Source of the DNA: an uncultured virus (IMG/VR IMGVR_UViG_3300011202_000008)
Lineage: Duplodnaviria > Heunggongvirae > Uroviricota > Caudoviricetes
Virus record (IMG/VR): IMGVR_UViG_3300011202_000008
DNA length: 64,000 nt
Reading direction: 5' to 3' (one strand)
This document shows, in pieces, positions 1,968 through 51,787 of the stretch. The notes under the pieces are model-generated. The model was not told the DNA's origin and made no database searches. It saw nothing but the letters and a program-made list of their open reading frames with translations. The translations under genes were made by a program, and so were the position numbers. How positions within the stretch are numbered: the stretch's first letter is position 1; every line of letters starts with the position of its first letter.

Positions 1968-3587
1968 ATGGATATTGATGATATTACTGTTAATCAATTT
2001 TTTTCTCCCGTTTCGGTTGATTTAATTGATAACGTTATTGCACGATATGAGTATGATAAAAATAAAATTGTGAGTGTTTCAGATAATCTAATTCGAGAAC
2101 TCTCAACCGTTTTCCATTACTTCGTTAATGGTAATTCTAGTAAAGATAGTATTTATCGATCTATTTCACCAGAAGTTCTTTTCAAAAAAGAAGGTGCTAT
2201 TCAAGATCTAAATGACAAATATTGGGATAGTATTTTAACGTTAACGGACGTTAGAAAGTTAATGCCTCAAAAACGTAGAGAAGAATGGGATAAGCAGATT
2301 GCTAACCATGAAACCCCTGAATTTAATCAAGAGAACGTAAGAGCTACTGTTATGTCTCTGCTAAACTCTCGTGCAGATTTTATCGCTGAAAAAGTTGATG
2401 GCGTTTTCAATAACCTTTCTAAAGTTCATGTTACTAACTGTCCAGAAGGTTTCTATAAAAGAATGATTATGGGTGGTGTATTTAGTGGCAATGATTACCC
2501 TGATTATAAACAAAAAGGTTATATTGATGATTTGAGAGATGTTGTTGGGCGAATTATGAAACGTGGCGAATATGACTATGGAACAACATATAGTATACTT
2601 GCCCATGCTTACAATAACTCTGGTAAGTGGATTTCTCTTGATGGTAATGCCATTAAAATAAAGGCATTTAAAAAAGGAACAGTTCATCTTGAGGTTCATC
2701 CTGATATTGCTTTAGAACTTAATATTATTTTATCGCATCTTTATCCGACTGCTATTCCTCAAAAAAATAGAGATCGTAAAGAAGCCATAAGAAATAAAGA
2801 TAAAAAATATGAGTTGAACTTGAATACTTTACCATTTAATATCATTAAAGCATTAAATGCTCTTGATAAACCACCCCTTATTCAGAAAGAAAGTAGTAGA
2901 TTTAGAGAATATCGTGGTTGGACAGATAATGAAAATAGTTTACGTATTTCTTCTACTATTAGTGATGTTGATAGTAAAGAAGTCTATAAAATATTAGAAT
3001 TCTTAGGTGGCGAACGTAAACAAATAAATATGGCTATTTGGCATGAATTTGATTATGACATTAAAAAAGTAATTCAAGAAATTGTTTTATCTGGCAATCT
3101 ACCAGATATTAAAACATTCCAATATTACCCTACTCCGGCACCTTTAGCAGAGTTTGTTGTTGATTGGGCTGATATTGATGATGATCATAAGTGCTTGGAG
3201 CCAAGTGCTGGTCAGGGAGGTATTGCTAAGTTTTTACCAATTGAACAAACTACATGTGTTGAGATTTCGAAACTAAATACAGAAATTTTAAAAAACAAAG
3301 GCTTCAATCAGATTATTAATGATGATTTTGTTCAATGGGCATCAAAAACTAGTGAGCGATTTGATAGAGTTGTTATGAATCCTCCATTTAGTGATGGACG
3401 TGCTGAACTTCATACTAAAATGGCTTTTTCGTTATTAAATAATGATGGAGTATTAGTTGCTATTCTTCCGGGATCATTTAAAAACAAACAGATTATAAAA
3501 GGCGCAAAACATGAATACTCTGATTCAATGAAGGACTTGTTTGCTGGAACAGGAGTTTCTGTTGTTGTTGTAAGAATTGAAAAATAA
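1968..3587 (+). CDS. DUF4942-like N-terminal domain fused to an N6-adenine DNA methyltransferase
   Basis: QYYPTP, LEPSAGQG (SAM motif I) and VMNPPF (catalytic motif); the N-terminal IKAFKKGTVHL region is typical of DUF4942 proteins. Confidence 0.8.
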   Translation: MDIDDITVNQFFSPVSVDLIDNVIARYEYDKNKIVSVSDNLIRELSTVFHYFVNGNSSKDSIYRSISPEVLFKKEGAIQDLNDKYWDSILTLTDVRKLMPQKRREEWDKQIANHETPEFNQENVRATVMSLLNSRADFIAEKVDGVFNNLSKVHVTNCPEGFYKRMIMGGVFSGNDYPDYKQKGYIDDLRDVVGRIMKRGEYDYGTTYSILAHAYNNSGKWISLDGNAIKIKAFKKGTVHLEVHPDIALELNIILSHLYPTAIPQKNRDRKEAIRNKDKKYELNLNTLPFNIIKALNALDKPPLIQKESSRFREYRGWTDNENSLRISSTISDVDSKEVYKILEFLGGERKQINMAIWHEFDYDIKKVIQEIVLSGNLPDIKTFQYYPTPAPLAEFVVDWADIDDDHKCLEPSAGQGGIAKFLPIEQTTCVEISKLNTEILKNKGFNQIINDDFVQWASKTSERFDRVVMNPPFSDGRAELHTKMAFSLLNNDGVLVAILPGSFKNKQIIKGAKHEYSDSMKDLFAGTGVSVVVVRIEK

Positions 3588-3603: not shown

Positions 3604-3840
3604 ATGTCAGATTCTAAGTTAAGTTTTAAAGTAATTTATCGTAAAGGTCTTTGGTATGTAGAGGCAGAATATATTGTTTATAATGCTCGTGTAGATATAT
3701 ATGAGCCGCCTGTTGCTGAAATGATCTTGGATAAGAAATCTAGACCTTATAGTGCTCGACCTACACCTAAACAGATTAGAAGGGAAAAATCTTATTTAGG
3801 TGAGACCCTCAAATGGGAAGCTGTGTTAGAATGTGTTTAA
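3604..3840 (+). CDS. Hypothetical protein
   Basis: 78 aa ORF, AAGGA RBS, likely co-transcribed with the MTase. Confidence 0.6.
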   Translation: MSDSKLSFKVIYRKGLWYVEAEYIVYNARVDIYEPPVAEMILDKKSRPYSARPTPKQIRREKSYLGETLKWEAVLECV

Positions 3841-3847
3841 AATTATG

Positions 3848-3876
3848 TTGTATTTTAGTCTATAATACATTATAAT
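3848..3876 (+). promoter_or_regulatory. sigma70-type promoter upstream of a non-coding region
   Basis: TTGTAT-17 bp-TATAAT. Confidence 0.65.
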
Positions 3877-3880
3877 CATT

Positions 3881-4193
3881 CACAATGACGCCTGCAATGT
3901 TATTTAATGTTAGTGGGCTTTTATTTCGTCTTGTGGTGGCAAGACGTTAATGCGCTAAAGTAATCCTTATTAGGATGAACTCAAGTTGAGATTGGAGCTT
4001 ATGATGCTGACAGGACAGTATAGCTCGACACCTTAAGTGGTTTTCCTGCCACCATAAATATTTTGACAATAATACCATTTATTGTTATTATCAAAGCAAC
4101 TACACCTCTCTGGCCTCTTAATAATGCTCATTAAGAGAGGTTCTTTTTAAAGACCGATGCGCCGGGAATTGGACCCGTCCTATTTGGTCTTTA
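3881..4193 (+). ncRNA. Putative structured ncRNA (core domain 3938-4054)
   Basis: GC-elevated, ORF-free stretch after a promoter. Nested stems are closed by GGCAAGA (3938-44)/TCCTGCC (4044-50) followed by ACCA. Confidence 0.55.
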
Positions 4194-4216
4194 TCAATTT
4201 TACTGAGGATAAAAAT

Positions 4217-4708
4217 ATGAGAACTGACATAATACTTGATTTAGGGCTTTATTTTATTAGTAATACTTCTGGCATTAAAAATAAAGAACGTCTTAATGAT
4301 TTTATTGTGTTTTCTGAAATTCTCAAACTTCAATGTTTTCAGGATTCTTTAACTGATTCTGAATACTACATAAAAAATAATAAGATTATGGTTCTTTCTC
4401 TTGATGAAGTATTACAGAGCAGCACTCCACTTGAAGAAGTATTCTTTGAAACTGAATATGCTTATGATAACTTCTCTGTTGCTACTACAAAACTCCTTGA
4501 TGAAGCAATGGTTACTTTTGATAATCAACCTGATGTCGTTAAGACCCTCCTTTCAAAATCAATACCTAATAATAGGAATCTAGATGTATTTTCTGATGAG
4601 TTTTATTATTGTGTTTTAAAGCAAACAGAACTATCAGAAGAAAATATTACTTATGTTATTGATAGAATCAAGCATTTTCAATATATTTATAATACTTTCG
4701 CAGTTTAA
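4217..4708 (+). CDS. Hypothetical protein, possibly a degenerate Panacea/SocA (DUF4065)-like antitoxin domain
   Basis: GAGGA RBS before ATG 4217, so the ORF-track start at 4157 is likely too early. LYFI...KERLNDFIVFSE...SLTDSEY resembles the Panacea N-terminus. Confidence 0.4.
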   Translation: MRTDIILDLGLYFISNTSGIKNKERLNDFIVFSEILKLQCFQDSLTDSEYYIKNNKIMVLSLDEVLQSSTPLEEVFFETEYAYDNFSVATTKLLDEAMVTFDNQPDVVKTLLSKSIPNNRNLDVFSDEFYYCVLKQTELSEENITYVIDRIKHFQYIYNTFAV

Positions 4709-6703: not shown

Positions 6704-7252
6704 ATGGATAAAATAGCGATTATAGATTTAGAATGCACTTGTGACGATACAGGTAAAATAATTCCTAGACATGAAATGGAAATTATTGAGATTGGCTGCG
6801 TTATTGCTGATTTAAACGGTAATACTTATAATGAGTTCAACTGTTTTGTTAAGCCTATCATACATCAAACTCTTACTCCTTTCTGCACATCATTAACATC
6901 TATCACTCAAGAACAAGTTAATAACGGCATTTCTCTTGAAAAAGCCTTAAGTGCTCTTGATGACTTTTTGTTTAATGAAAATGTTAATCAATGGGGTTCT
7001 TGGGGAGGATTTGATGCAAATCAGATTCGTAAAGATATTAGAAATAATAAGCTTAGTGAAACATCATTCACCTTCTTAAAACTTGAACATATTAATCTTA
7101 GTGCTGAATATGTTATCCAAAATAAACTTCAAAAGAAAGTTGGCGTTAGGAAGGCATTGGGGCAAAATAAAATGAAGTTTATTGGCATTCCTCATCGTGG
7201 CATTGATGATGTAAGAAATATTGCTAGACTACTTCCTTATATTTTTAAGTAA
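6704..7252 (+). CDS. DEDDh 3'-5' exonuclease (ERI-1/KapD-like)
   Basis: IDLECTC, EIIEIG, SWGGFD and HRGIDD motifs. Confidence 0.85.
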   Translation: MDKIAIIDLECTCDDTGKIIPRHEMEIIEIGCVIADLNGNTYNEFNCFVKPIIHQTLTPFCTSLTSITQEQVNNGISLEKALSALDDFLFNENVNQWGSWGGFDANQIRKDIRNNKLSETSFTFLKLEHINLSAEYVIQNKLQKKVGVRKALGQNKMKFIGIPHRGIDDVRNIARLLPYIFK

Positions 7253-7811
7253 CTTTTTCTAGGTTTTTCTCTTTTATGGTTTTTAATGATTTTTCTTCTT
7301 TTATTATATCATCGACTTGCTTTATTATTTTTTTCGATGGTATTAATAATAAATAACTAATACTCAATGTAGATAATAAAAATACTATAGAAAATATACT
7401 TGTAAGTATTACTATATGATTCGTCTCTATAAAGTAAGACATAGCATTGCCAGAATATAACAATAAATCTATTAAATAAGTTATACCATACATAATAGGA
7501 TAAACTCCTGTTAAAAATGAAATCATTATATGATACATTTTTTTTCTCTTTATCATTTTCATTATTTCTGGTGTTATAATAAAATAGTTTTCTACTTTAT
7601 TATCATAATTAAATAATACTTCATCTTCTTTTATTAATGATATTATATCTCCTTTTTTTAAGTCTTTTACTTTTCCTTTTACTTTATATTTTTTATTATG
7701 CTTTAAATAGATGAAAGTTTGTATATCAACATTATAATCATCAGGATCAGACTTTCCTATAACAGTGGTTTCAATATTTTCAATTTCTCCAGATATTATT
7801 TTATTACTCAT
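7245..7811 (-). CDS. Membrane protein, paralogue family A
   Basis: N-terminal beta-rich domain (IISGEIENIET...KKGDII) followed by 2 TM. Confidence 0.7.
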   Translation of the reverse strand: MSNKIISGEIENIETTVIGKSDPDDYNVDIQTFIYLKHNKKYKVKGKVKDLKKGDIISLIKEDEVLFNYDNKVENYFIITPEIMKMIKRKKMYHIMISFLTGVYPIMYGITYLIDLLLYSGNAMSYFIETNHIVILTSIFSIVFLLSTLSISYLLLIPSKKIIKQVDDIIKEEKSLKTIKEKNLEKVT

Positions 7812-8320
7812 CTTCTTTCCTTATCATAGACTTTATTCATTTTAATATCATAGCCTTTGTCTTTATTTATAATATTTTTAGCTTCTCTTATAGTTTTATT
7901 ACTTGGTAGATTAATAAAAAGGAATATAGGCATAAAAGTTAAAACGAATAAAGGGAATAACATATCAACACCACCATTCATGATGTATGATAGATATGCC
8001 ATCTTATATATCAATAGATTATATACTACTAATATTGGACCTATCAAACAGGTTATTCCTATAGTTCCAAACATAAATCTCTCTATTTTCATCATTTTCA
8101 ATGTTTTTTTATTAATAACATCATAAAATTTAGCATGTTTATTTCTCTCGACTAAATATATATTGTCGCCTTTATTAAATCCTTTAATTATCCCTTTAAT
8201 TTTATAATTTTTATTATCGTTCAACGATATTAATGAATATACCTGAGTGGAACCATTTTCTTTTTCAGAAAAAATAGTCTCAATATTTTTTATCTTTCCA
8301 CTAATTATTGTATTATACAT
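7808..8320 (-). CDS. Membrane protein, paralogue family A
   Basis: IISGKIKNIET...NKGDNIYL plus 2 TM; overlapping start/stop with neighbours. Confidence 0.7.
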   Translation of the reverse strand: MYNTIISGKIKNIETIFSEKENGSTQVYSLISLNDNKNYKIKGIIKGFNKGDNIYLVERNKHAKFYDVINKKTLKMMKIERFMFGTIGITCLIGPILVVYNLLIYKMAYLSYIMNGGVDMLFPLFVLTFMPIFLFINLPSNKTIREAKNIINKDKGYDIKMNKVYDKERR

Positions 8321-8843
8321 TTGTATGCTGATAATCCTTAACTAATTGAATTAGACTTTCTTTTTTCTCAAATGGTATTGAGTTTAAATAATCATCTATA
8401 TTTTTCCTTTCTTTTTTATTACTAAAAAATATATAACAATTTAAACCAATCAAAATTACTGACATTACTAATAATAAATAAGATATACCCACATTTAAAT
8501 CTTTACTTATATTACTTACAGACATATATATAAAGAAAAATTGAGCACATAAATTAAACTTATCCATCCATTTAAATTTTCTTTTTTCTTTTATTTTTTC
8601 AGCGTTTTTTTGATTAATGAAATATTTTACTTGATTTCTATCATTATCTGATACAACAAAACCTATATAATCACCTTCCTTGAAATCAAGATCACAATCT
8701 GCATTTAGTATATATCCATTATCCATTGTTATGATATTTTGTGTTTTTAATAATGATTTAGTATGTTGTAAATATTCATCTGTTTCTTTTTCTTCAACTA
8801 TTAATGAATCTATTTTTTTTACTATACCTTTTATTAATATCAT
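8313..8843 (-). CDS. Membrane protein, paralogue family A
   Basis: LIKGIVKKIDS...KEGDYIGF plus 2 TM. Confidence 0.7.
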   Translation of the reverse strand: MILIKGIVKKIDSLIVEEKETDEYLQHTKSLLKTQNIITMDNGYILNADCDLDFKEGDYIGFVVSDNDRNQVKYFINQKNAEKIKEKRKFKWMDKFNLCAQFFFIYMSVSNISKDLNVGISYLLLVMSVILIGLNCYIFFSNKKERKNIDDYLNSIPFEKKESLIQLVKDYQHTNV

Positions 8844-8852
8844 AACATCTCC

Positions 8853-9083
8853 TTAAAAAGTATCTAAAACAGATGTTTCAATCATTTGTTCTTTTAGATC
8901 TCTATAAGCGGCTTGTTTCTGCAATACCTTTGTATCTTCCTTTAAAGCAATATCTATAGCGTGATCAATATCTAAAATATCAAATATGGTATTTGCTTGT
9001 TCAAGAGTTAGCTGTTTACCAAATTGGGTAGCAACAATCATTATATCATCAGTTGTTATTTCGAAACCTAAATCCATATCCAT
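8853..9083 (-). CDS. Hypothetical protein
   Basis: GAGG RBS before ATG 9083. Confidence 0.6.
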   Translation of the reverse strand: MDMDLGFEITTDDIMIVATQFGKQLTLEQANTIFDILDIDHAIDIALKEDTKVLQKQAAYRDLKEQMIETSVLDTF

Positions 9084-9198
9084 AAAGCCTCTCTTATATT
9101 TTTTAAATAGTATTTGTAATGAACCATCATAACACATGTATTATTTGAAAACAAATCGGATTTTAACTTACTATAACTTCACTTTTCATTTTTACCTC

Positions 9199-9768
9199 TT
9201 ATTTAATATCTACAATATTTTTAGATAACGACTCGTCAATATTGTAAATATCAGGAGCTTTTATATTTTTTCGTTTAGATTTAAAACTTATTATTGAAGA
9301 TAAAAGTTCTTTCTTTATTTTTATCTCTTTTTTAAAATCTACTAACTCTTTAATCCACATCTTAAAGGCAAAAATTAACGTTAAAAACATACTTCCCATT
9401 ACCACAATACGATTCATTATAGAAAGATTATCATTATCTAAAGGTAAAAATGCTGCATATGAAAATATTACAAGCATTAAAAATTTAAGAAATAACTCTA
9501 TATCAAATGGTTTTGTATCGTCTAATAATTTATTTTCAAATTCTAATGTTAATAATGATTCTATTTGATTATCACTATTAGCGATTAAAACGATTTCTTG
9601 CCCCTCTTTTTCTTTAATATCTATTGATGTTTTAAAAATCTGTCCATCTTCAAGTGTTAAAACTGTTGATGCTTCAAGATTTTTTATGTGATTTTTATTT
9701 TTATCCACACTTTCAGATTCTATATAAAATGTTTCTTTTTTTACAATTTTTTGATGTATTAGCTTCAT
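9199..9768 (-). CDS. Membrane protein, paralogue family A
   Basis: LTLEDGQIF...KEGQEIVL plus 2 TM. Confidence 0.65.
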   Translation of the reverse strand: MKLIHQKIVKKETFYIESESVDKNKNHIKNLEASTVLTLEDGQIFKTSIDIKEKEGQEIVLIANSDNQIESLLTLEFENKLLDDTKPFDIELFLKFLMLVIFSYAAFLPLDNDNLSIMNRIVVMGSMFLTLIFAFKMWIKELVDFKKEIKIKKELLSSIISFKSKRKNIKAPDIYNIDESLSKNIVDIK

Positions 9769-9918
9769 ATAAATTCTTATTCCAATAGTTAAAATGACAT
9801 TGTTATAAATAATAATATATTAGATGCTCAATATCAAAAATAAGTTAGATTAAAATTTTTCTTGTGATTAACCTAACTTATTGTTAAAATATAGTCATTA
9901 TTGAATATTGAGGTTATT

Positions 9919-10611
9919 ATGGAAATCAAAAAGAAGTACCCAAGAACATATCATTTAAGTTTCTCGGAAGCATTGCAATCTGATGACAAACTTATTGAAT
10001 CCCTTGAGGGTTTTATGGGTAAAGAAGTTTCTGTTTCTTTGAAAATGGATGGCGAAAACACAACACTATACCCTGATGAGCAAATGCATGCACGTAGTCT
10101 TGATAGCGCCCATAACTGGACGAGAGACGTTGCTAAACGTATTCACTCTGTTATCCGTCATGATATTCCCGAAGGCCATAGGCTTTGTTGTGAGAACGTT
10201 TATGCTAAACACTCAATCTACTATCCTGACGGATATTTAGAAGGTTATCTATATCTTCTTTCAGTTTGGAATGGTGATACTTGTTTATCTGTCGATGATA
10301 CGAACTTTTATGCTGAAGCATTAGATCTTCCAAGACCTAAAGAGTTATATCGTGGTGAGTTTGATATTGAAGTTCTTAAAAAACTATCTAAGTCACTAGA
10401 CAAGAGTATTGAGGAAGGTTTTGTTGTCCGTGTTACTGATGCTTTTGAATATAAAGATTTTAGTAAGTTTGTTACTAAGTTTGTTCGTGCTGGACATGTT
10501 CAACCTGAAAGTAAACATTGGCTTCAAACAGCAACGCCTAATGGCGAACCTATGCAGCCATGCAAACCTGCTTTTATGGCCTCTAATCCAAGACGTAAAG
10601 TAAAACCTTAA
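9919..10611 (+). CDS. RNA ligase (Rnl2-like nucleotidyltransferase domain)
   Basis: KYPRTYHL, motif I KMDGEN, EGFVVR, KFVR; GAGG RBS before ATG 9919. Confidence 0.85.
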   Translation: MEIKKKYPRTYHLSFSEALQSDDKLIESLEGFMGKEVSVSLKMDGENTTLYPDEQMHARSLDSAHNWTRDVAKRIHSVIRHDIPEGHRLCCENVYAKHSIYYPDGYLEGYLYLLSVWNGDTCLSVDDTNFYAEALDLPRPKELYRGEFDIEVLKKLSKSLDKSIEEGFVVRVTDAFEYKDFSKFVTKFVRAGHVQPESKHWLQTATPNGEPMQPCKPAFMASNPRRKVKP

Positions 10612-10646
10612 AAATAAAAAAGGCTTAGTTAACTAAGCCTTTCTTT

Positions 10647-10976
10647 TTACATTATCATACCAAGAGATGCAAAATCTATTTCTTCTTCTTTTGGTTTTTC
10701 TGGATATAATAATGATAAAATCTGTTGAGAGTAAATAACGTTAAATGTTTTTCCCTGATTTAGTATTTCTCTTTTTATACCTTTAATAAAATCTTCATGT
10801 TCATTCGTACTTTTATATCTATACATTTTATTTTCTATTCTATCCTTTAAATAATGAATAAAATGAGATTCAAAAATGTTTTCTCCGTTTAAGAAAACAA
10901 CGGCCTGATTCGAGTCTTTTTCTGATACTTCAATATATATATTATTTTTTGGCAAATAAACTAACTCTTTTTTCAT
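10647..10976 (-). CDS. Hypothetical protein
   Basis: 109 aa ORF with AAGGA RBS. Confidence 0.6.
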   Translation of the reverse strand: MKKELVYLPKNNIYIEVSEKDSNQAVVFLNGENIFESHFIHYLKDRIENKMYRYKSTNEHEDFIKGIKREILNQGKTFNVIYSQQILSLLYPEKPKEEEIDFASLGMIM

Positions 10977-11066
10977 TTCTTATCCTTTATTTTAATCTTT
11001 TCTGTTTATACTATATTTTTGCCAAAATAAAAGCACCCGAAGGTGCTTTTTTAAAACTTTCGAAAA

Positions 11067-11177
11067 TTAAGATACAAGTGATCTAAGTTTTTCGTGAACT
11101 TTTACAACGGTAGGATGATCACGGAAGAATGCTACAATCAAACCACCTACAACACCACCAACTACTACTCCGATCAT
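11067..11177 (-). CDS. Small membrane protein (36 aa), not in ORF track
   Basis: AGAGAGG RBS; MIGVVVGGVVGGLIVAFFRDHPTVVKVHEKLRSLVS; followed by the terminator hairpin at 11030-11052. Confidence 0.7.
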   Translation of the reverse strand: MIGVVVGGVVGGLIVAFFRDHPTVVKVHEKLRSLVS

Positions 11178-11311
11178 ATAAACCTCTCTTATTAGTTATT
11201 AATTTAAAATATAGACAACCTTTTACAACACAACCATTATAGATTGTTAAATTCAAAAAATCAAGAAAATATTACTTCATATTTTATATTTTTGATTTAT
11301 TTACAAAATAT

Positions 11312-12304
11312 TTAATAACCTAACCTTCTTTTTCTTGTATCTTCAAATTTTAACATCATTTCAGCATCAACAAAGAATCTAGTAGTAAAATCAGCGTCAA
11401 GCTCTTTTCCTTTTTCAGGGTTTTCTTTATAAGCTTTTAATATATTTGTGAAGCTTTCTTTTATTTCTTCGTTACTCATATCATTGAAACGAGATGAGTT
11501 TTGTTTTTCGTCAAAAACATTGCCACCTAAAAGGATAACTAAATCAGATGGAATAGCTTCTTTTACATAGGTGTCAAGATTTTTTGCTTTTACTATAGCT
11601 TCATCGACATAACCATCAGACAACAGATCAGACACATGCTTTAAATGCTTATAATCTTCTTTATCAGACTCTAATAAATGTAGCTTATCTTCATGCATCG
11701 CTGTTTTTTGAAAATCAAGAATATGTTCATTCATAGAATTCAAAACTTTTTTTAACTTACCTAATGTGTCTGCCACATGATATTTTGGAAGATCTTCTGT
11801 TCCATCATAAGCAGATATATCAGATTGATATTGGAAAATTTCAACGTCTTCATCAGGAACAACTTTATAACTTGGATTGTTGACTCTTATTGCCCCTTCA
11901 AACTGTTCAAACTGATTCTTTTTTTCAATAACAACGTGTTCTGGAACAGAGTGAACATTTTCGAAGTTTAACTCCATTTCAATCACTCTTACGGGTATTC
12001 CTTTTTCTTTAGCATAACTAATAAAAGGCTCCATTTCTGAAAGCTTAGTAAACGTATTGCTTACAACGACATTAAAACCTTTATCTAAGGCTTTTTTAGC
12101 TTTTTGTAGACATACATCTTTGGCTTTTTGATGATTAGCGAAATCAAATTTATAGATACCATTACTATCGGTAAAGAAAGCATCATTTTCAAATGATTGA
12201 TATCCGTTTAATTCATATTCATTAGACATTTTTGATTTTCCACTGCCGGGATGTCCCCTAACGATTAGTAATTCTTGTTCTGTTTTGAATCCTAAGTATT
12301 TCAT
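11312..12304 (-). CDS. P-loop kinase (AAA_33/polynucleotide kinase-like) fused to an unknown C-terminal domain
   Basis: VRGHPGSGKS, VVVSNTFT, NVHSVP; likely start MKYLG at 12304 (GAGG RBS). Confidence 0.75.
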   Translation of the reverse strand: MKYLGFKTEQELLIVRGHPGSGKSKMSNEYELNGYQSFENDAFFTDSNGIYKFDFANHQKAKDVCLQKAKKALDKGFNVVVSNTFTKLSEMEPFISYAKEKGIPVRVIEMELNFENVHSVPEHVVIEKKNQFEQFEGAIRVNNPSYKVVPDEDVEIFQYQSDISAYDGTEDLPKYHVADTLGKLKKVLNSMNEHILDFQKTAMHEDKLHLLESDKEDYKHLKHVSDLLSDGYVDEAIVKAKNLDTYVKEAIPSDLVILLGGNVFDEKQNSSRFNDMSNEEIKESFTNILKAYKENPEKGKELDADFTTRFFVDAEMMLKFEDTRKRRLGY

Positions 12305-12387
12305 GTTAAACCCTCTTTTACATTTAATACTCTTATTATAACAATATAGGATTATTATGTATAGAAAATTTATTATTTTATTTATGC

Positions 12388-12515
12388 AAAAATTAAGCCT
12401 CCCGAAGGAGGCTATAAACTTACACAAAAACTAAAATAACTAATAACTATAACAACTACTAAACAGGAGTCTATATCGTATTACTATGCTATTACGGAGA
12501 TTAGCAAGTTATACT
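12388..12515 (-). ncRNA. Putative small RNA
   Basis: TTGACT-17-TAATAT promoter (12550-12522), no ORF, and a cUUCGg terminator hairpin at 12396-12413 with the T tract on the minus strand. Confidence 0.5.
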
Positions 12516-14759: not shown

Positions 14760-15590
14760 ATGACATGCAATATTAGGGTTTATTCAGATATACATCAAGA
14801 GTATCAAACAAAAAATAAAGAACTTCCAAAGTTTTTTAAAGATCCTTTTGATATTGCCGTTTATAAAGATGAAAAGCAGCAAACTCTCGTTATTGCTGGA
14901 GATTTGATTTATCTAAAAGATCTCAAAGATATTCGTTATATTCAATATCTTGAAGAATTGGCTAACCGTTTTAAACATGTTATTTATGTTTTTGGAAATC
15001 ATGAATTTTACATGTATAAATTGGGTAAAAACTACATTATCAAGGTTGCTGAAATGTTGTCTCATATTAAAAATCTTCATATCCTTTCAAGGTATACACC
15101 ATCTGTTGTAATAGATGGTGTTAAATTTGTTGGTGCAACATTGTGGACTGATTTTAATCATGAGCCTAAACTTTATCATTTTTATGAAGATACTACAGGT
15201 GATTTTAAATATATAAAATATAATGATGGTCCTTATTTTACTAAATTTAGATCTAATCATTGGGTAAAAGAACACGTTGAAGATTTTACTTGGATAAAAA
15301 ATGAAGTTCAACACTCTACAGAACCTGTTGTTGTTGTATCACACCATGCTCCAACTAGTGTTACTACAGATCCTGTTGATGATCCTAAATCAGAGTATAC
15401 GCAATTTTATACGTCTAATCTGGATGATTTCATAATCCAAAATCCTAATATATTGATGTGGATTCATGGTCATGTTCATTATCCTTTTGATTATAAAATG
15501 GGAACAACTAGAATTTTCTCTAATCCTAAAGATTATCATATTTCTATTGATGACAATCCTGAAAGAAGTTTCATTGAAATAAATCCTTAA
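14760..15590 (+). CDS. Calcineurin-like metallophosphoesterase
   Basis: SDIH, AGD, GNHE, HHAP and HGHVH motifs. Confidence 0.88.
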   Translation: MTCNIRVYSDIHQEYQTKNKELPKFFKDPFDIAVYKDEKQQTLVIAGDLIYLKDLKDIRYIQYLEELANRFKHVIYVFGNHEFYMYKLGKNYIIKVAEMLSHIKNLHILSRYTPSVVIDGVKFVGATLWTDFNHEPKLYHFYEDTTGDFKYIKYNDGPYFTKFRSNHWVKEHVEDFTWIKNEVQHSTEPVVVVSHHAPTSVTTDPVDDPKSEYTQFYTSNLDDFIIQNPNILMWIHGHVHYPFDYKMGTTRIFSNPKDYHISIDDNPERSFIEINP

Positions 15591-18903: not shown

Positions 18904-19746
18904 ATGACTTTAGTTAACCTCTTTGCTGCTATTTATAAAAATGATATCGAGCAAATTAAAAACATCTTAACCAATGAGCCTTCGTTGGTGGAAACCGTTT
19001 TTAAAAACCCTGAAAAAGAGCCTCATGCTTTTACTACTAAACTCTATCATCTTTGTAATGATGATCGTCAGATTGATGACCCCAATTATAAAGCAGAAAC
19101 AGCCCTTCTTTTTGCCGCTCGTTTAGGACGTAAAGAAGTTTGCGAACTACTTGTTAATGATTTTAAAGCGGATGTTAATGCTACAAACACTTATGGTCAT
19201 AATGCTTTCATGTCAGCTATTGATAGAAAAACTGATGCGAACTTTGATACAGCGCTTATGATTTTAAATAATCCTACCCTTAATCTTCATCATACTACCT
19301 ATGGTTTACATGATGCTTTAGGTCAATTGTTAAGACATCTTCAGCATTTTGACCCAAGAGGAGAATTGTCAGCAGTTCATGCACAAGCTGTTATTGATGC
19401 GTTGCTGGATAAAGGTTTTGACTTGAATAAACCTCAAGGAAAATCAGGTGAAACAGCATTTCTTTTAGCTTGCCATGCCCACAGTTGGATTGTCGTTGTT
19501 TATCTCATTGCTAGAGGTGCTGATTATTCTGTTAAAAATAATTATCTTCATTATGAGCGCGATATGTATTCAGCTCTTACTACCAATCAATATCTTCCTC
19601 CAGCAGCAAAAGAAGAGGTGCTTAATCTTTTGAAAAATGTTATTATGGGTGTTGAAAACCGTTTTGGTGAGTATAAACGTCCTGATCATCTTTATATTGA
19701 TTTTGATGGTGAACCTATGGAGTTTGATGCTAAACGTTTTGGTTAA
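18904..19746 (+). CDS. Ankyrin-repeat protein
   Basis: ETALLFAARLG, ADVNATNTYGHNAF and GETAFLLAC...RGADYS repeats. Confidence 0.8.
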   Translation: MTLVNLFAAIYKNDIEQIKNILTNEPSLVETVFKNPEKEPHAFTTKLYHLCNDDRQIDDPNYKAETALLFAARLGRKEVCELLVNDFKADVNATNTYGHNAFMSAIDRKTDANFDTALMILNNPTLNLHHTTYGLHDALGQLLRHLQHFDPRGELSAVHAQAVIDALLDKGFDLNKPQGKSGETAFLLACHAHSWIVVVYLIARGADYSVKNNYLHYERDMYSALTTNQYLPPAAKEEVLNLLKNVIMGVENRFGEYKRPDHLYIDFDGEPMEFDAKRFG

Positions 19747-20632: not shown

Positions 20633-22159
20633 TTAATTGCATGTATATAATCTTCTATCTGGTTCTCGACAATTACTTCCACCATTATTACATTCATTTC
20701 CTCGATATCTTGATACTTCTATTTGTTTTAAGCGATTAGGATCATTTGGGCAAGAACAACCTCCTGTATCTTTATTTGGAACATAGCATTTTCCTTCAAC
20801 AACAATAAACATTCTATTTATACTTCCTCCCCCTTCTTTCCAAACTCCATTAGAGCAAGATAATATAGAACCATCTGCTGTTCGTCCTTGCAAACCATTA
20901 GGAGAACATCCATTACCTGCATAGGCTACGCCATTGAGTTGAAGAAATTCCCCAACGGTTGTTCTACCACCAGATACAACACCTCCTGCCCCGTAAACCT
21001 GACCAGCAGCATCAATATTCCCGTTGGAATGAACATAGTTAGAGTTAAGGTTTCCTGATGCCCAAACATATGTTGCATTAACCGTTCCATTAGCATCTAT
21101 GTTTCCTGTTGATTTAACGTATCCACCATAGAATCCTGAAGTTGTTTGAACATTTTTACCCGCATAAGCGGTTATGGTGTTAGCATCGGTCATATTCCAG
21201 CCACCACCATACTTCTGGAAGTATATACCACCATCACCTAATGTTCTGAACCAGTTTTGAGTATAAGTTTCACCACGAGAAGTTACAGTTGTCCCTGAAA
21301 CAGTATTATTAGAATTAATGTTTCCATTAACCTGACTATTTCCTGCGACATTTAAATCAGACCCCATTGTAGCCACACCTCCTACATTTAGTGTAGAACC
21401 TACTGTAGTTGCGCCAGTAGAACTCAATGTTCCAGAAGTTGTATTCCCTACTGCTGTTATATCCTGAGCATTATAAATACTCTGACCACCCATATTAAGG
21501 TTTCCGGTCATAGGAAGTGTCCCATCACGACGAAGATAAACAGAATACATGGCTGAATTGTATCCCACTCTATATCCTAACATTCCAGCTTTTGCTATAG
21601 CAGGATATCCAGAAGAAGGATAATTCCAGTTATTACCATAACCATCAAGTTGAGTAGGAGATTTACTCATACCACTATCAATACCTGCTTCTTGCATAGC
21701 TTTACCAAGTAAATCATAACGGATACTCCCTCCTTCAACCCAAGAAGCATTAGTTATTATTAAACCATCAATAATATAGTGAGGACCTGTCCCTGAACGT
21801 TTTAGCTGTATAGAATAATCGGAACCAAAACTATTTCTGGCAACATAGGTTGATGGTAACAACCCTTCATTGATTAATGTTTGATAAGTAATGGAGCATA
21901 GATTTCCAGAACATGTTCTTGGTCCCGGATCGGTACCATTTTCAGCAGCAGCAGATAAACTGGCGAGTTTATCATATCTTATATTGATATATCCATTAAC
22001 CGCTTCTCCCAACTGCTTAATTTGCTGACCTGTAGCTGTTGCTTTTATATCTTCCTGATCTTTTACCATATCTTGAAATTTTATAAATGCTAATGATGTC
22101 CCTATACCAAGCACTAAAATAATTTCAAGTAATGAAAATCCTTTTTTATATTTCATCAT
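20633..22159 (-). CDS. pilV: PilV-like type IVb pilus tip adhesin
   Basis: Class III signal KKGFSLLE, shufflon-PilV-like N-domain, YLRRDGTLPMTGNL, WFRT...YGGGW.M.D and CS.G.W before the variable tip. Confidence 0.8.
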   Translation of the reverse strand: MMKYKKGFSLLEIILVLGIGTSLAFIKFQDMVKDQEDIKATATGQQIKQLGEAVNGYINIRYDKLASLSAAAENGTDPGPRTCSGNLCSITYQTLINEGLLPSTYVARNSFGSDYSIQLKRSGTGPHYIIDGLIITNASWVEGGSIRYDLLGKAMQEAGIDSGMSKSPTQLDGYGNNWNYPSSGYPAIAKAGMLGYRVGYNSAMYSVYLRRDGTLPMTGNLNMGGQSIYNAQDITAVGNTTSGTLSSTGATTVGSTLNVGGVATMGSDLNVAGNSQVNGNINSNNTVSGTTVTSRGETYTQNWFRTLGDGGIYFQKYGGGWNMTDANTITAYAGKNVQTTSGFYGGYVKSTGNIDANGTVNATYVWASGNLNSNYVHSNGNIDAAGQVYGAGGVVSGGRTTVGEFLQLNGVAYAGNGCSPNGLQGRTADGSILSCSNGVWKEGGGSINRMFIVVEGKCYVPNKDTGGCSCPNDPNRLKQIEVSRYRGNECNNGGSNCREPDRRLYTCN

Positions 22160-26458: not shown

Positions 26459-27370
26459 TTATTTAAATATACCATTAATATTTCTTTTATCGAAACACGG
26501 TTTTAGAAGAATAATATTTCCATTACTTTCCATTTTTAGCATCATCTTCATCATAACAGCTAACGTCATTTTTCCTTTACCTTTCTTAGCATTTTTTATA
26601 GTTTTAAATGATTTATCTGCCAGTTGATATATTAACCCGCACTCTTTAGGTAAATCTTCTTTTTTGATTATTCCTTCTGGACAAACATAATAAAGTTTTT
26701 CTGATACTTCTAAATAAGATTTCCATTTATCAGGCTTTTTCATATCTGATAAGAAATCAGCACGGCTATGTTTGATTTCATATGTTGTTGGCTTCATATT
26801 ATCTTCGTTTAGCGTTTTATCCACTGTAAACACGTCTGGACGACTTACGCCATATTGTGTCTTGATTTCCATATCTTCAAAAACAAAACACCCCATAGAT
26901 TCTCTAAACTTGATAAAATCATAAATAATATTATTATGACCGCTCTGATTCTTTTTACTATTGAGGTTCAAATAATTATAAATAGCCAAGCCATAATTTG
27001 TTGGAACAAAAAACTCTTCTTCAATACCCATGATTTCTCTACAGGTATCTTCATCAATCTCTTTGTTAATCTGCCCTCTTCTTATGGCATGACCTTGCAT
27101 TATCTTACCGTATTTTTTAGTTTGATAATCAACCATACCCCAAGACAATAGATCATAAACTAGTTTTTGATTCATATTATTAACTCTAAAGCCATTATGC
27201 ATAATTCCATTAAATTTATGGTCTATAATAGCTCTTAATATGACTTTATGGTTATAAGCCATACTTAACAGATGCTCATCACCTCTATTCTCATAGAGCT
27301 TAATTAAATTTTCCTGAACTGTCATTTTAAAAGTTTTAGGACGCTCTTTTTCTTTTCTAATGAATACCAT
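26459..27370 (-). CDS. MmcB-like PD-(D/E)xK nuclease, paralogue of 22323-23129
   Basis: KNQSGHN, YGVSRPDV, YEIKHSRADFLSD, YYVCPEG. Confidence 0.7.
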   Translation of the reverse strand: MVFIRKEKERPKTFKMTVQENLIKLYENRGDEHLLSMAYNHKVILRAIIDHKFNGIMHNGFRVNNMNQKLVYDLLSWGMVDYQTKKYGKIMQGHAIRRGQINKEIDEDTCREIMGIEEEFFVPTNYGLAIYNYLNLNSKKNQSGHNNIIYDFIKFRESMGCFVFEDMEIKTQYGVSRPDVFTVDKTLNEDNMKPTTYEIKHSRADFLSDMKKPDKWKSYLEVSEKLYYVCPEGIIKKEDLPKECGLIYQLADKSFKTIKNAKKGKGKMTLAVMMKMMLKMESNGNIILLKPCFDKRNINGIFK

Positions 27371-27431
27371 TTTTTTACCTATTCGATTAATATTTTCTTT
27401 ATTCTATCATTTTTTTTAGTGTAAATGTAGA

Positions 27432-28115
27432 TTAAATTTTAACTTTTAGTCTATTTATTTTATTCTCTACAACACTACTCAACGACTTAAACTCTATTCC
27501 TTTTACTTTATCAAGCTTGTAGATAACCTGATCTTCACCTTCAATTACAAAATCTTTAGGCAATGTTATTTCAGCGAGTTTTAAACCTTTATTCTCCATT
27601 TCATGAATAATTTGTTCATTATTTAACCATAGCTTTAACTGCTCTTGATCTTTGCAGGCAAAACGCCATTTTTCTGTATATGTTGTTTTAGTAGACATTG
27701 AGGTAAAGATCATCTTTAAATTTTTATCATCATGAGGAGACATTCCTGCTTCTAAAAACTTATATCCTAATCCCATTGAATATATTCCCTTATTATCCTC
27801 ATTACATAGTCTAACAATAGTAATTAAATCTTTTTCATCTGCAATATTAAGATTATCATAAAGTTCATTCAAATTAACTTCTACTTGATATCTCCACCCA
27901 TCAATCTCTGGATTATCTTCCATAAACATCCAATCTGGAAATACTTTAAATAAACTCTTATTTTCATCTTCTATATTAACAGGAAAAGTTGTTATAAATT
28001 TTTTTAATACTTCTTCATCTGCTGAACTATTATCCATTTGAACATCACAACAATATTTATATTCTTTGTTAATATTTATGGGATCAAATAATTTCAAAAA
28101 ATCTTGCCTTTTCAA
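27432..28115 (-). CDS. Hypothetical protein (phage-type) with basic C-terminal tail
   Basis: 227 aa ORF, start uncertain (TTG); ends RLKVKI. Confidence 0.6.
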   Translation of the reverse strand: MKRQDFLKLFDPININKEYKYCCDVQMDNSSADEEVLKKFITTFPVNIEDENKSLFKVFPDWMFMEDNPEIDGWRYQVEVNLNELYDNLNIADEKDLITIVRLCNEDNKGIYSMGLGYKFLEAGMSPHDDKNLKMIFTSMSTKTTYTEKWRFACKDQEQLKLWLNNEQIIHEMENKGLKLAEITLPKDFVIEGEDQVIYKLDKVKGIEFKSLSSVVENKINRLKVKI

Positions 28116-29300: not shown

Positions 29301-30317
29301 ATGAAACACATTTTGAAATGGCATGGAAGTAAAGGTTCCGAACTTGATATTATACATAAAAACAAACCTTCAAAAATTAACAGATTTATTGAACCTTTCC
29401 TTGGTAGTGGTGCCGTTTACTTCTCATTAGAGCATACATCAAATATAGTTAATGATTTTCATAAAGAATTGATGAGCTTTTATTCTATTATTAATAATCA
29501 AAAAGATTTTTCTATTTTTAAAGATATTATTGAACACGCAGAAGAAGAAAGAAGATTGGCCCGAAATATTACTAGTTTAGAACATATTTATGATGAGGCA
29601 TTAATCATCAATGATACTCCTATTTTTCATAAATATTTAATTAAGGAATTAAAATCAAAAGAAAAAACAATAGAAAAGATTAATCTTAAAAATGGCTATA
29701 TTTTGCCAGATAATGAAATATTAGACATAAAGATAACAGGAGTATGTGCAGCTCTTTATTATATGTATAGAGAGTTGTATAACATAAAAAATAAATCATC
29801 ATCTCTCGATGCTGAACACTTATCTTATTGGTTTATAATGAGAGAAATATGTTATTCAGGGATGTTTCGTTTTTCTGCTAAGGGCAATTTTAATGTTCCT
29901 TATGGGGGCCTTTCATATAATACTAAAATTTTTTCTAATAAACTTAAGCAAATAGAGATAATGAAAGAAAAATACTTCTTTAATAATACAGAGTTTAATA
30001 ATTTAGATTTTGAATCTTTATTCGTTAAGTATAACTTTTTTAATGAAAATGATTTTATTTTTCTTGATCCGCCTTATGATAGTGAGTTTTCCCAATATAA
30101 CATAGAGTCAGATTTCACCAAAATAGACCATATTCGATTAAGAGATAGTCTACTTAAGACTAAAGCTAATATTATGATGGTAATAAAAAATACTGATTTT
30201 ATTTATGAACTATATAAGGATAACTTTAAAATACAAATATTCGATAAAAGTTATAATGTTAATTTTAAAAATAGAAATAATAGAGATACACAGCATCTTA
30301 TTATTACTAATTATTAA
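29301..30317 (+). CDS. Dam-like (D12 class) DNA adenine methyltransferase
   Basis: LKWHGSK, EPFLGSGAV, FNVPYG, FLDPPY. Confidence 0.88.
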   Translation: MKHILKWHGSKGSELDIIHKNKPSKINRFIEPFLGSGAVYFSLEHTSNIVNDFHKELMSFYSIINNQKDFSIFKDIIEHAEEERRLARNITSLEHIYDEALIINDTPIFHKYLIKELKSKEKTIEKINLKNGYILPDNEILDIKITGVCAALYYMYRELYNIKNKSSSLDAEHLSYWFIMREICYSGMFRFSAKGNFNVPYGGLSYNTKIFSNKLKQIEIMKEKYFFNNTEFNNLDFESLFVKYNFFNENDFIFLDPPYDSEFSQYNIESDFTKIDHIRLRDSLLKTKANIMMVIKNTDFIYELYKDNFKIQIFDKSYNVNFKNRNNRDTQHLIITNY

Positions 30318-39240: not shown

Positions 39241-39269
39241 TTGACATAATAAAAACAATATTTTATACT
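39241..39269 (+). promoter_or_regulatory. Near-consensus sigma70 promoter
   Basis: TTGACA-17 bp-TATACT. Confidence 0.8.
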
Positions 39270-39275
39270 TTCCTA

Positions 39276-39460
39276 TAGTGGCAAGAGCTTGGTCTTTATG
39301 TTATCCGATTATTGCTAAAAGATTCTTGGGCCACCAGACTATCGGAAGTCTGAATAAATGATTGTTATATTGGGAACGATATATGTCTTGGAACCTTAAT
39401 GCTAACAAGAAGCTGCGATCATAATGTGAAAAAAAGGCTGGTTAATCCAGCCCTTTTTTT
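39276..39460 (+). ncRNA. Putative structured ncRNA (~185 nt)
   Basis: Lies between a consensus promoter and the terminator ggctgg-ttaat-ccagcc+T run; several stems; no credible ORF. Confidence 0.65.
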
Positions 39461-48531: not shown

Positions 48532-49089
48532 TTATTTAGTATAGAAAGTAATATTGTTATACTTTTCAGAACAACCTTTAGCTACATTATCTATATTTAG
48601 TTCCATATTTTTATAAACGTTTTTTATAAATGATGTTTTTTGATTGTTATTTTGTAGGTAAGATACATCTGTTTTTATTGCTCCAAAACTTTTTTCTACG
48701 GAGCTTACAAATAATGCACATTGATCTTGAGGTATGTTTGTATATTTTATGCTAAGCATAGAATATTTATTTCCAGTTTTATAATCGGATATTATTACTT
48801 CGCCCTTCCATGAATTTGTTATTTTATACAGTGTATTTGAAACCATTGTATTTGGAACTATTTTTGCTTCTAAAAGAATTTTATTACTAAGACCATTATA
48901 GTTGTTCCCATTATATATACCATAAATACCACTCAATATAGTATTTAGATTTGATACTTCTATATTTACGGTATTTGAATTCTTTAATTTAGGATAAAAA
49001 TAAAATACAGAAACAATAATACTAGCAATAATTCCTATAACTATTAATACTTCTAATAGGGAATATCCTTTTCTATTGATTATTTTCAT
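48532..49089 (-). CDS. Type IV pilin, PilS-like
   Basis: Class III signal RKGYSLLE, hydrophobic helix, NSWKG, Y.NIP...C and a second C-terminal Cys. Confidence 0.75.
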   Translation of the reverse strand: MKIINRKGYSLLEVLIVIGIIASIIVSVFYFYPKLKNSNTVNIEVSNLNTILSGIYGIYNGNNYNGLSNKILLEAKIVPNTMVSNTLYKITNSWKGEVIISDYKTGNKYSMLSIKYTNIPQDQCALFVSSVEKSFGAIKTDVSYLQNNNQKTSFIKNVYKNMELNIDNVAKGCSEKYNNITFYTK

Positions 49090-51229: not shown

Positions 51230-51787
51230 TTATAAAATATAAGTTAAATTGATTGAAACCAAATCATCCATGTAAGGTTTTGAACAATTTTCAGATATTT
51301 TAGCTACATCTATTTGATCTGATGGAGACGATTTTATCGATGCTCCAGAAACTTTTATAATTGCGGTCATTGGAAAAACAGCAGTAATGAATTTTGTACA
51401 GGCATTTTCTGACACCTCATAAATTAGTGTATACCCCGCACTGTAAGTATATCCAGATTCTGGCGTAGAATATAGACTATATCTTACATTTCTACCCCAA
51501 GCATTTCTGTATTCTGATGTGGATTCGGAAAATATCATGTTATCAGGTAAAGCCTTAGCTTTAACTAAAACATTTAAAGACCATTTTGAATAATCGGATG
51601 ATGAACTAAATAACTCTTTACTAGCAGCGTAGATAGCCGAAAGGTTCTTGGTTTCTTGGTTTACTTCATTTGATGCTTTAACTCCGGGATAAACTAAAAA
51701 CGCAGCAACAATAAATGCTGATATTATTGCTAGTGATAATAATAATTCAAGAAGAGAAAAGCCTTTTTTATTCCTTATTATTTTCAT
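51230..51787 (-). CDS. Type IV pilin, PilS-like
   Basis: KKGFSLLE signal, NAWG, two Cys. Confidence 0.75.
   Translation of the reverse strand: MKIIRNKKGFSLLELLLSLAIISAFIVAAFLVYPGVKASNEVNQETKNLSAIYAASKELFSSSSDYSKWSLNVLVKAKALPDNMIFSESTSEYRNAWGRNVRYSLYSTPESGYTYSAGYTLIYEVSENACTKFITAVFPMTAIIKVSGASIKSSPSDQIDVAKISENCSKPYMDDLVSINLTYIL

Follow-up and report, generated by a model that had tools for sequence, protein, structure and literature searches.

The stretch of DNA considered here, which we call the window, comprises 64,000 nucleotides (nt) of an uncultured virus of the Caudoviricetes (IMG/VR record IMGVR_UViG_3300011202_000008). It contains a non-coding gap of 376 nt (3841-4216) between open reading frames (ORFs) on the + strand, and all genes around the gap are co-oriented. 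An earlier note on this DNA had described the gap as a promoter-driven non-coding RNA with a 117-nt domain that might be processed to a tRNA mimic ending in ACCA. We give about an even chance to a different reading, in which the gap is a conserved + strand small-RNA or leader cassette and not a tRNA mimic. This reading rests on computed data: sequence and structure are conserved, compensatory changes occur, the promoters are kept, one strand is preferred, and the cassette is syntenic with a downstream gene that encodes a 163 amino acid (aa) protein. Five blocks stand out in the alignment of related loci, all on the + strand: promoter P1, hairpin 1, promoter P2, hairpin 2 and hairpin 3 (Table 1). 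The conserved-cassette reading is preferred because these blocks are conserved even where the orthologue of the 163-aa protein is only 40-44% identical. What the earlier note had observed is partly confirmed and its interpretation is partly supported; the eye-catching 'tRNA-like' domain turned out to be lineage-specific, and the conserved core lies outside the 117 nt.

Five related metagenome loci, L001 to L005, were recovered with an alignment of the 163-aa family (A1). In L001 and L002, the 163-aa protein is 93% identical to that of the window and the gap is identical between the two loci; the more distant orthologues are those of L003, L004 and L005. The gap differs between the window and L001 by 3 mismatches in 376 nt, compared with about 5% in the flanking genes, but the divergence between these two sequences is patchy, with zero-mismatch stretches also in coding DNA, and no inference on selection is drawn from it. 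The cassette precedes a gene of the 163-aa family in all six sequences. Moreover, the window and L004/L005 have a gene order of ten items in common, which runs from a YkuD-domain protein through an ORF of about 150 aa, a DUF4942 methyltransferase, a small ORF and the non-coding cassette to the 163-aa gene, a membrane protein of about 152 aa, a NUDIX protein, an ORF of about 275 aa and an RNase_T-type exonuclease. Searches with blastn gave no match to the gap in phage and plasmid collections (72,556 plasmids), and none to the L003 module in phage and plasmid collections. No related locus was found in viral and genome contig collections with the methyltransferase, and none with the 163-aa protein or its alignment. 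Hairpins 1 and 2, searched as DNA patterns, had 0 matches in viral contigs, and a covariance model built from our own sequences (R1) detected only the six known copies, with none further in the window, an Erwinia plasmid locus or phage phiC2.

Covariation in homologues, which the earlier note had proposed as a check, was found in hairpins 2 and 3. In their consensus fold (RNAalifold, alignment A3, five sequences), 6 of the 27 pairs carry compensatory double changes and none is broken, with pairing in 135 of 135 cells (100%). The covariation score was 0.296, compared with 0.175 in shuffles; this value was reached by 0 of 500 shuffles, and sliding the partners by 1-3 columns gave 0.156 at most. 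Within hairpin 2, three outer-stem pairs covary, and the loop is nearly invariant across strongly diverged loci. Hairpin 3 has 16 pairs, three of them with compensatory double changes and none broken; its tail reads UUUUUU in L003-L005 and a weaker UUUAUCAAUUUU in the window. On the - strand, the consensus of the two hairpins reaches -29.4 kcal/mol, compared with -32.5 kcal/mol on the + strand, and five cells in three pairs are broken. The G.U pairs, the orientation of the promoters, the U runs and the lack of any broken + strand cell point to a + strand RNA. Folding energy gives a less directional signal: the gap as a whole (3875-4200) folds better than shuffles on both strands and not on the + strand alone, with -87.6 kcal/mol (z -2.96) on the + strand and -78.5 kcal/mol (z -2.24) on the - strand.

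Two further features of hairpin 3 and its surroundings were noted. In L004 and L005, the sequence that links hairpin 2 to hairpin 3 can pair with the ribosome-binding site of a DUF4325 gene that follows the cassette (-26 to -29 kcal/mol). This pairing was rejected as a conserved feature; it was reached by 7/300 shuffles in L004 and 6/300 in L005, but L003 (57/300) was no better than shuffles and in the window, where 212/300 shuffles reached it, the feature is absent. In addition, every lineage has an ATG within hairpin 3 whose frame continues in phase into the downstream gene (4157-4216 in the window, 5573-5668 in L005). Gene callers used this ATG or one further upstream, which gives the proteins P0001 and P0002 their listed length of 194 aa. 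The substitutions in this frame are the compensatory stem changes, which alter residues (Q/R, L/P), and no good Shine-Dalgarno sequence precedes it; the N-terminal extension is probably an annotation artefact.

The promoter TTGTAT-17-TATAAT reported by the earlier note is present, and its position and spacing are kept in distant relatives. In L003-L005, P1 consists of a TTGCAT -35 box, a 17-nt spacing and the -10 boxes TATGAT, TATAGT or TATAAT; the conserved block is summarized as TTGYAT-17-TATRAT. P2 is of the sigma-70 type, with 11 of 12 consensus matches and a TG upstream of the -10 box; L003 and L004 retain both boxes (TTGACA and TATTAT) at the 17-nt distance, and L005 has TATTGT. Three further hairpins had been described up to position 4193. 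They are present, but the segment 4063-4094 is P2 itself, and its hairpin, in which the -35 box pairs with the -10 box, is absent in L003-L005. The consensus fold of hairpin 1 (alignment A4) comprises 17 pairs with one compensatory change (U-A to C-G), and its flanking blocks are nucleotide-identical in loci in which the neighbouring protein is only 40-44% identical. The 5' stem cacaa-t-gacg (3881-3890) / cgtc-ttgtg (3927-3935) and the competing hairpin cgtcttg/caagacg, both seen before, were recovered as well. Between the predicted P1 and P2 RNAs, only long discontinuous duplexes were found, which are not convincing.

An ATG at 3885, located 8 nt past the -10 box of P1, opens a possible leaderless frame of 21 codons. 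P1 could produce a leaderless mRNA for a hydrophobic peptide of 21-23 residues (MTPAML..VSGLLF), a type I toxin-like or leader peptide, with the hairpins being secondary. The corresponding distance is 7 nt in L003 and L005. All loci have an open frame of 21-23 codons, and the first 14 residues are for the most part conserved (translation by eye). Nevertheless, the conserved codons are without synonymous variation although the proteins are 40-44% identical, the variable positions fall in the hairpin loop, and the sole stem change is compensated. L001 furthermore has a Pro to His exchange at codon 3, and the C-terminal halves are unrelated. Because of this pattern of variation, the constraint on the frame appears to act at the level of nucleotides and not of the peptide, and we regard a peptide-coding function as very unlikely.

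In the conserved-cassette reading, each of the two sigma-70-type promoters would produce a short RNA with terminator-type hairpins at its end. Transcription from P1 would yield a hairpin RNA of about 40 nt, and in the window lineage read-through would enter an insert of about 128 nt. The RNA from P2 would measure about 50 nt with a stop after hairpin 2 and about 100 nt with a stop after hairpin 3. Termination would hold expression of the 163-aa gene low and the cassette would thereby act in cis as an attenuating leader. No promoter was found in the window between hairpin 3 and the 163-aa ORF, only a ribosome-binding site, and without its own promoter, the gene would be expressed only by read-through in the window. 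The free P2 RNA may also bind a protein partner, by analogy with the antitoxin RNA RCd22.

The insert between hairpin 1 and P2 contains the domain that the earlier note had singled out. GGCAAGA (3938-3944), TCCTGCC-ACCA (4044-4054) and the inner hairpins of the 117-nt domain are all present. The closing helix is a 14-nt imperfect inverted repeat (3931-3944 / 4044-4057) in which 12 of the 14 positions form Watson-Crick pairs and one a G.U pair, and the ACCA at 4051-4054 pairs with UGGU at 3934-3937 inside this helix. The free, tRNA-acceptor-like ACCA end is contradicted by this pairing and by ARAGORN, which predicted 0 tRNA or transfer-messenger RNA (tmRNA) genes over the 64 kb. Neither the gathering nor the relaxed Rfam scan gave a tRNA, tmRNA or RNase P match. 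The 117-nt domain is lineage-specific, either gained in one group of loci or lost in the other: the insert is present in the window, L001 and L002 and absent from L003-L005, which have about 22-30 unrelated nt in its place, and because it is missing there, it does not belong to the conserved core. Folded alone (130 nt), the insert reaches -41.7 kcal/mol on the + strand (z -3.34 against shuffles), and the - strand has a z of -3.25. That the domain is processed from a promoter-driven RNA to an ACCA-ended tRNA mimic is extremely unlikely. P1 is real by conservation, the domain folds better than shuffles, and a similar pair of ends occurs at 39280-39336, all of which would fit such a mimic; however, the ACCA is paired, the tRNA, tmRNA and RNase P searches were negative, the domain is missing in L003-L005 and sits 3' of a terminator-like hairpin, and the - strand folds equally well.

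The ACAGGA loop of the domain had also been likened to a CsrA site. A Csr/Rsm-type RNA, which would expose several GGA motifs in hairpin loops, is not supported at the gap: apart from the UGGA in the hairpin 3 loop of the window, which is UAGA in L003-L005, the sole loop GGA is that of ACAGGA (4010-4015), inside the non-conserved insert.

The earlier note had further suggested an undescribed RNA family. This stands in so far as Rfam gave 0 gathering-threshold matches in the whole 64-kb window, but the core reproducibly resembles the abiF motif (RF03085) below threshold. In the relaxed scan, RF03085 is the best Rfam match of hairpin 2 in all three lineages tested, with 23.1 bits (E 0.13) in the window, 20.5 bits (E 0.29) in L003 and 23.1 bits (E 0.068) in L005. 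The matches cover all model positions 1-37, and no non-canonical pair is flagged in the window or L005. The abiF architecture of a 6-bp outer stem, an internal loop, a 3-bp inner stem and a loop of about 11 nt is found in hairpin 2, and RNAalifold independently recovers the abiF-model pairs. Phage phiC2, in which the annotated AbiF gene (27175-28038) is preceded by an RCd22-type RNA, was used for calibration: its two abiF motif copies score 19.5 bits (copy 1) and 37.6 bits (copy 2). Real abiF copies can therefore score below hairpin 2.

In PMC12373285, RCd22 is described as the RNA antitoxin of an AbiF (Abi_2, HEPN) system in Clostridioides difficile prophages and as consisting of two abiF motifs and a terminator. 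The same paper states that RCd22 reduces abiF expression about 17-fold and that the AbiF toxin is neutralised by direct RCd22 binding in cis and in trans, and it discusses AbiF and its RNA as ancestor of Cas13 and its guide (PMC12373285). The abiF motif is the hairpin through which RCd22 binds protein. Hairpin 2 shares with abiF/RCd22 the outer stem, an asymmetric internal loop, the 3-bp inner stem and the 11-nt loop, and with the abiF motif the loop bases GCCUCU..AA..AUGC(U)CA. The layout of promoter, motif hairpin, terminator hairpin, ribosome-binding site and gene, including an own sigma-70-type promoter, also corresponds to that described for RCd22 (PMC12373285). In contrast to the two motif copies given there for RCd22, the cassette has one. 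Different from abiF systems, the downstream gene encodes an unrelated 163-aa protein and no Abi_2/AbiF was found nearby. The 3' internal loop of hairpin 2 is CAUUAA or AAUUA instead of the CAAAU of the abiF motif, and the lineage considered here, which is low in GC, is probably a Gram-negative bacterium and not a member of the Bacillota as for RCd22. Judged from these sequence likenesses, the closest known relative of the P2 RNA would be the abiF/RCd22 antitoxin RNA, with a score below the family threshold and without an Abi_2 neighbour.

Several observations weigh against the conserved-cassette reading and against its abiF component. Only about three independent lineages are available and several of the 'compensatory' changes may be single events; since L001 equals L002 and both are nearly identical to the window, fewer independent events stand behind the changes than their counts suggest. 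Hairpin 1 has a weak fold (-9.7 to -11.9 kcal/mol), with two pairs broken in L001. L003-L005 have a third promoter-like site (TTGCAA-17-TATAAT) and the DUF4325 gene 3' of hairpin 3 and 5' of the 163-aa gene; control by read-through would therefore not be needed in these loci. The RF03085 scores are well under the gathering score of 37, which is the formal limit for membership, and the three matches are mutually homologous and not independent. Abi_2/AbiF (PF07751) was found neither among 92 distinct window ORFs (94 entries, four scans) nor among 15 L005 ORFs; it was also not detected in 12 members of the 163-aa family at E values up to 10, and PADLOC gave nothing. Finally, the model R1 does not match the RCd22 region of phiC2, although this negative result is weak because R1 is dominated by five near-identical loops.

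One alternative is that the gap is ordinary regulatory DNA, with two promoters and three intrinsic terminators or insulators conserved as such, RNAs that serve only to end transcription, a chance likeness to abiF and a functionless insert that is a local expansion or similar to a miniature inverted-repeat transposable element. All three conserved hairpins carry 3' U runs, the abiF matches are not independent and have E values of 0.07-0.29, the ORF scans revealed no Abi_2 partner, and the insert, which is absent from L003-L005, has imperfect terminal inverted repeats (12/14). On the other hand, the loop of hairpin 2 is conserved beyond the need of a plain terminator, and promoters that fire straight into terminators make no sense unless short RNAs or attenuation matter. 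The insert, moreover, has no second copy within the 64-kb window and, by eye, no target-site duplication at its flanks. We consider this explanation rather improbable. If the abiF likeness were due to chance, the conserved cassette would still be a modest, lineage-restricted leader or small-RNA element with clear promoters, terminators and covariation.

If, however, the P2 RNA is truly related to abiF, it would be an antitoxin RNA without its HEPN toxin in front of a different, uncharacterised small protein. This would bear on the exchange of RNA antitoxins between defence and counter-defence modules and on the range of partners of this hairpin. Such an abiF-type antitoxin RNA uncoupled from AbiF might be an orphan decoy against AbiF/HEPN toxins, or the recruited partner or regulator of a Panacea-like module; we consider this unlikely. 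The decoy version, in which the P2 RNA would neutralise the AbiF (HEPN) abortive-infection toxins of a host or recipient, is in our view unlikely. Phage pseudo-ToxI mimics of type III antitoxins provide an analogue for this idea. The abiF-like hairpin has its own promoter and terminator, and the lack of Abi_2 among the 92 window ORFs and the L005 ORFs scanned would suit a decoy. The neighbours are also of a counter-defence type (the DUF4942 and two Dam-type methyltransferases, RNA ligases, a kinase, NUDIX proteins and an exonuclease), and an orphan DUF4942 methyltransferase is typical of plasmid leading regions. Yet membership in the abiF family is unproven, and there is one motif copy compared with the two described for RCd22. 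In addition, no sign of transfer was found for the gene cluster, and the constant linkage of the cassette to the 163-aa gene speaks for a local role.

The 163-aa family is small and lineage-restricted: 12 relatives with 44-98% identity are known, and the family profile finds only 3 clusters among 1.84 billion representatives, with no outside relatives. One homologue was found on a 1.3-Mb contig. None of the 12 members has a Pfam match at E values up to 10, and PADLOC gave no match. The AlphaFold model is poor, with a predicted local distance difference test (pLDDT) value of 61.6, and the protein is predicted to be all-helical. Foldseek found nothing for this model in the PDB at E values up to 0.001, a wide structure alignment (VIA-align) reached a best Z of 5.5 for the C-terminal helix pair only, and a PDB profile search returned nothing meaningful. 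A feature search of the ESM Atlas led to SocA_Panacea clusters in 27 of 30 matches with the window protein and in 30 of 30 with its 44%-identical orthologue in L005 (score 0.95, 189-197 of 256 features shared). Panacea proteins (SocA/PanA, PF13274) are proteins with an antitoxin domain. By language-model features only, the 163-aa protein may be Panacea-antitoxin-like, which we treat as a lead only. Its size and the all-helical prediction fit Panacea. In L003-L005, the preceding 110-aa DUF4325 (STAS-like) gene, which is not present in the window lineage, has a stop codon that overlaps the 163-aa start, an arrangement like that of a two-gene toxin-antitoxin-like module. The family differs from Panacea in having neither a Pfam match nor a fold match, and a search for PF13274 in two records was negative (0/2). 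If the protein is indeed Panacea-like, the gene would encode an antitoxin-type protein, and a recruitment of the P2 RNA by such a module would, if true, connect antitoxin systems of the RNA type (type III-like) with those of the Panacea type (type II).

The methyltransferase upstream of the cassette opens another possibility. This DUF4942 protein matches at least 5000 plasmid records, of which 3999 are conjugative; on the Erwinia plasmid pEP1 the methyltransferase lies among psiA, ParB-like and DUF932 genes in the leading region. The gap could accordingly be a promoter or priming signal for single-stranded DNA (Frpo/ssi type) of a conjugative leading region. Such a signal would fit the hallmark methyltransferase directly upstream, the co-oriented genes and a long, highly structured non-coding gap that contains -35 and -10 boxes just 3' of it. 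In PMC11541004, Frpo is described as requiring a long hairpin that keeps its -35 and -10 boxes paired to a complementary arm, and 13,089 Frpo homologues are reported in plasmid-type elements. Unlike Frpo as characterized there, P1 and P2 are linear, with boxes unpaired to any arm and no conserved partner arm in the alignment, and the strand signal is that of an RNA: the G.U pairs favour the + strand and not the template strand. The blastn search of the gap against 72,556 plasmids, an indirect similarity test, gave no match either. This possibility is most improbable.

The earlier note had pointed out that the same GGCAAGA...GCCACCA ends recur at 39280-39336. This second site exists, with one match compared with 0 in 100 shuffles, but its interior is unrelated to that of the first site: the two share only 9 + 7 terminal bases, and blastn detected no other similarity. 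The second site forms the first hairpin of a candidate small RNA (sRNA) of about 185 nt that follows the gene for tryptophanyl-tRNA synthetase (TrpRS) and has a strong terminator at about 39436-39460. The candidate sRNA (39277-39460) folds with -54.3 kcal/mol (z -3.17), and its best structured-RNA Rfam match is PrrB_RsmZ (18.6 bits, E 0.025). As in RsmY/RsmZ, three GGA motifs are located in or at hairpin loops; different from these RNAs, the score is under the gathering value of 44. Judged from these motifs, it could be a Csr/Rsm-type RNA. No CsrA gene was found among 20 ORFs chosen by eye for their position outside larger ORFs; 17 of these 20 came from the set of 81 ORFs with 50-99 aa.

Table 1. 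Coordinates of the cassette, its neighbours and other features (positions refer to the window unless a related locus is named)
Feature	Position	Strand	Remarks
Promoter P1	TTGTAT 3848-3853, TATAAT 3871-3876	+	17-nt spacer; predicted start ~3884-3885
Hairpin 1	3890-3918, U run 3919-3926	+	U run UUUUAUUU; terminator-like end of predicted ~40-nt P1 RNA
Lineage-specific multi-stem insert	3929..4058	+	117-nt domain and helix, ~128-130 nt
Promoter P2	TTGACA 4063-4068, TATTAT 4086-4091	+	17-nt spacer, TG-extended -10; predicted start ~4098
Hairpin 2	4104-4141, U run 4141-4148	+	8-bp outer stem, 3-bp inner stem, 11-nt loop
Hairpin 3	4149-4192, U-rich tail to 4201	+	Terminator-like end of predicted ~100-nt P2 RNA
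DUF4942-type N6 methyltransferase	1968-3587	+	539 aa
78-aa ORF	3604-3840	+	Just 5' of the gap
163-aa ORF	4205..4708	+	ATG 4217; range includes Shine-Dalgarno GAGGA 4205-4209
DUF4325 gene	L003 1662-1994; L004 and L005 5669-6001		110 aa
Candidate sRNA gene	39241-39460	+	After TrpRS gene; TTGACA 39241-39246, 17-nt spacer, TATACT 39264-39269
RNA_ligase-family protein	9901-10611		RNA-repair-type set
AAA_33 kinase-like protein	11312-12427		RNA-repair-type set
Metallophosphatase	14760-15590		RNA-repair-type set
T4 Rnl1-type RNA ligase	57835-59043		RNA-repair-type set
Dam-type methyltransferases	29301-30317, 54315-55391		
Four tandem ORFs	7245-9768	-	170-189 aa
ORFs of similar size to the tandem set	L005 9501-11584		Same position as the window set
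Ankyrin-repeat protein	18904-19746		
Type IVb pilus parts	20633-22159, 48532-49089, 51230-51787, 62427-63953		Two Shufflon_N (PilV-like) proteins, two PilS/bundlin-type pilins
IscB-type gene	L001 10505-11800	-	RRXRR + HNH, 431 aa
HEARO/omega RNA	L001 11917-12207	-	123 bits, gathering 83

Beyond the cassette, the window encodes an RNA-repair-type set of ligases, a kinase-like protein and a metallophosphatase, as well as three methyltransferases (one DUF4942-type and two Dam-type) and three NUDIX genes. The four tandem ORFs on the - strand are without Pfam match; their N-termini are alike by eye and they contain hydrophobic stretches, and they may be paralogous membrane proteins. The pilus genes, the ankyrin-repeat protein and the low GC content of the window (about 29%) suggest a host-associated bacterium or a large conjugative element.

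A further observation concerns the close relative L001, in which a HEARO/omega RNA lies beside the IscB-type gene. According to the blastn blocks, about 1.7 kb of L001 (~10459-12205) are without counterpart at position ~8675 of the window, which points to a mobile IscB element (10505-12207) inserted in this relative.

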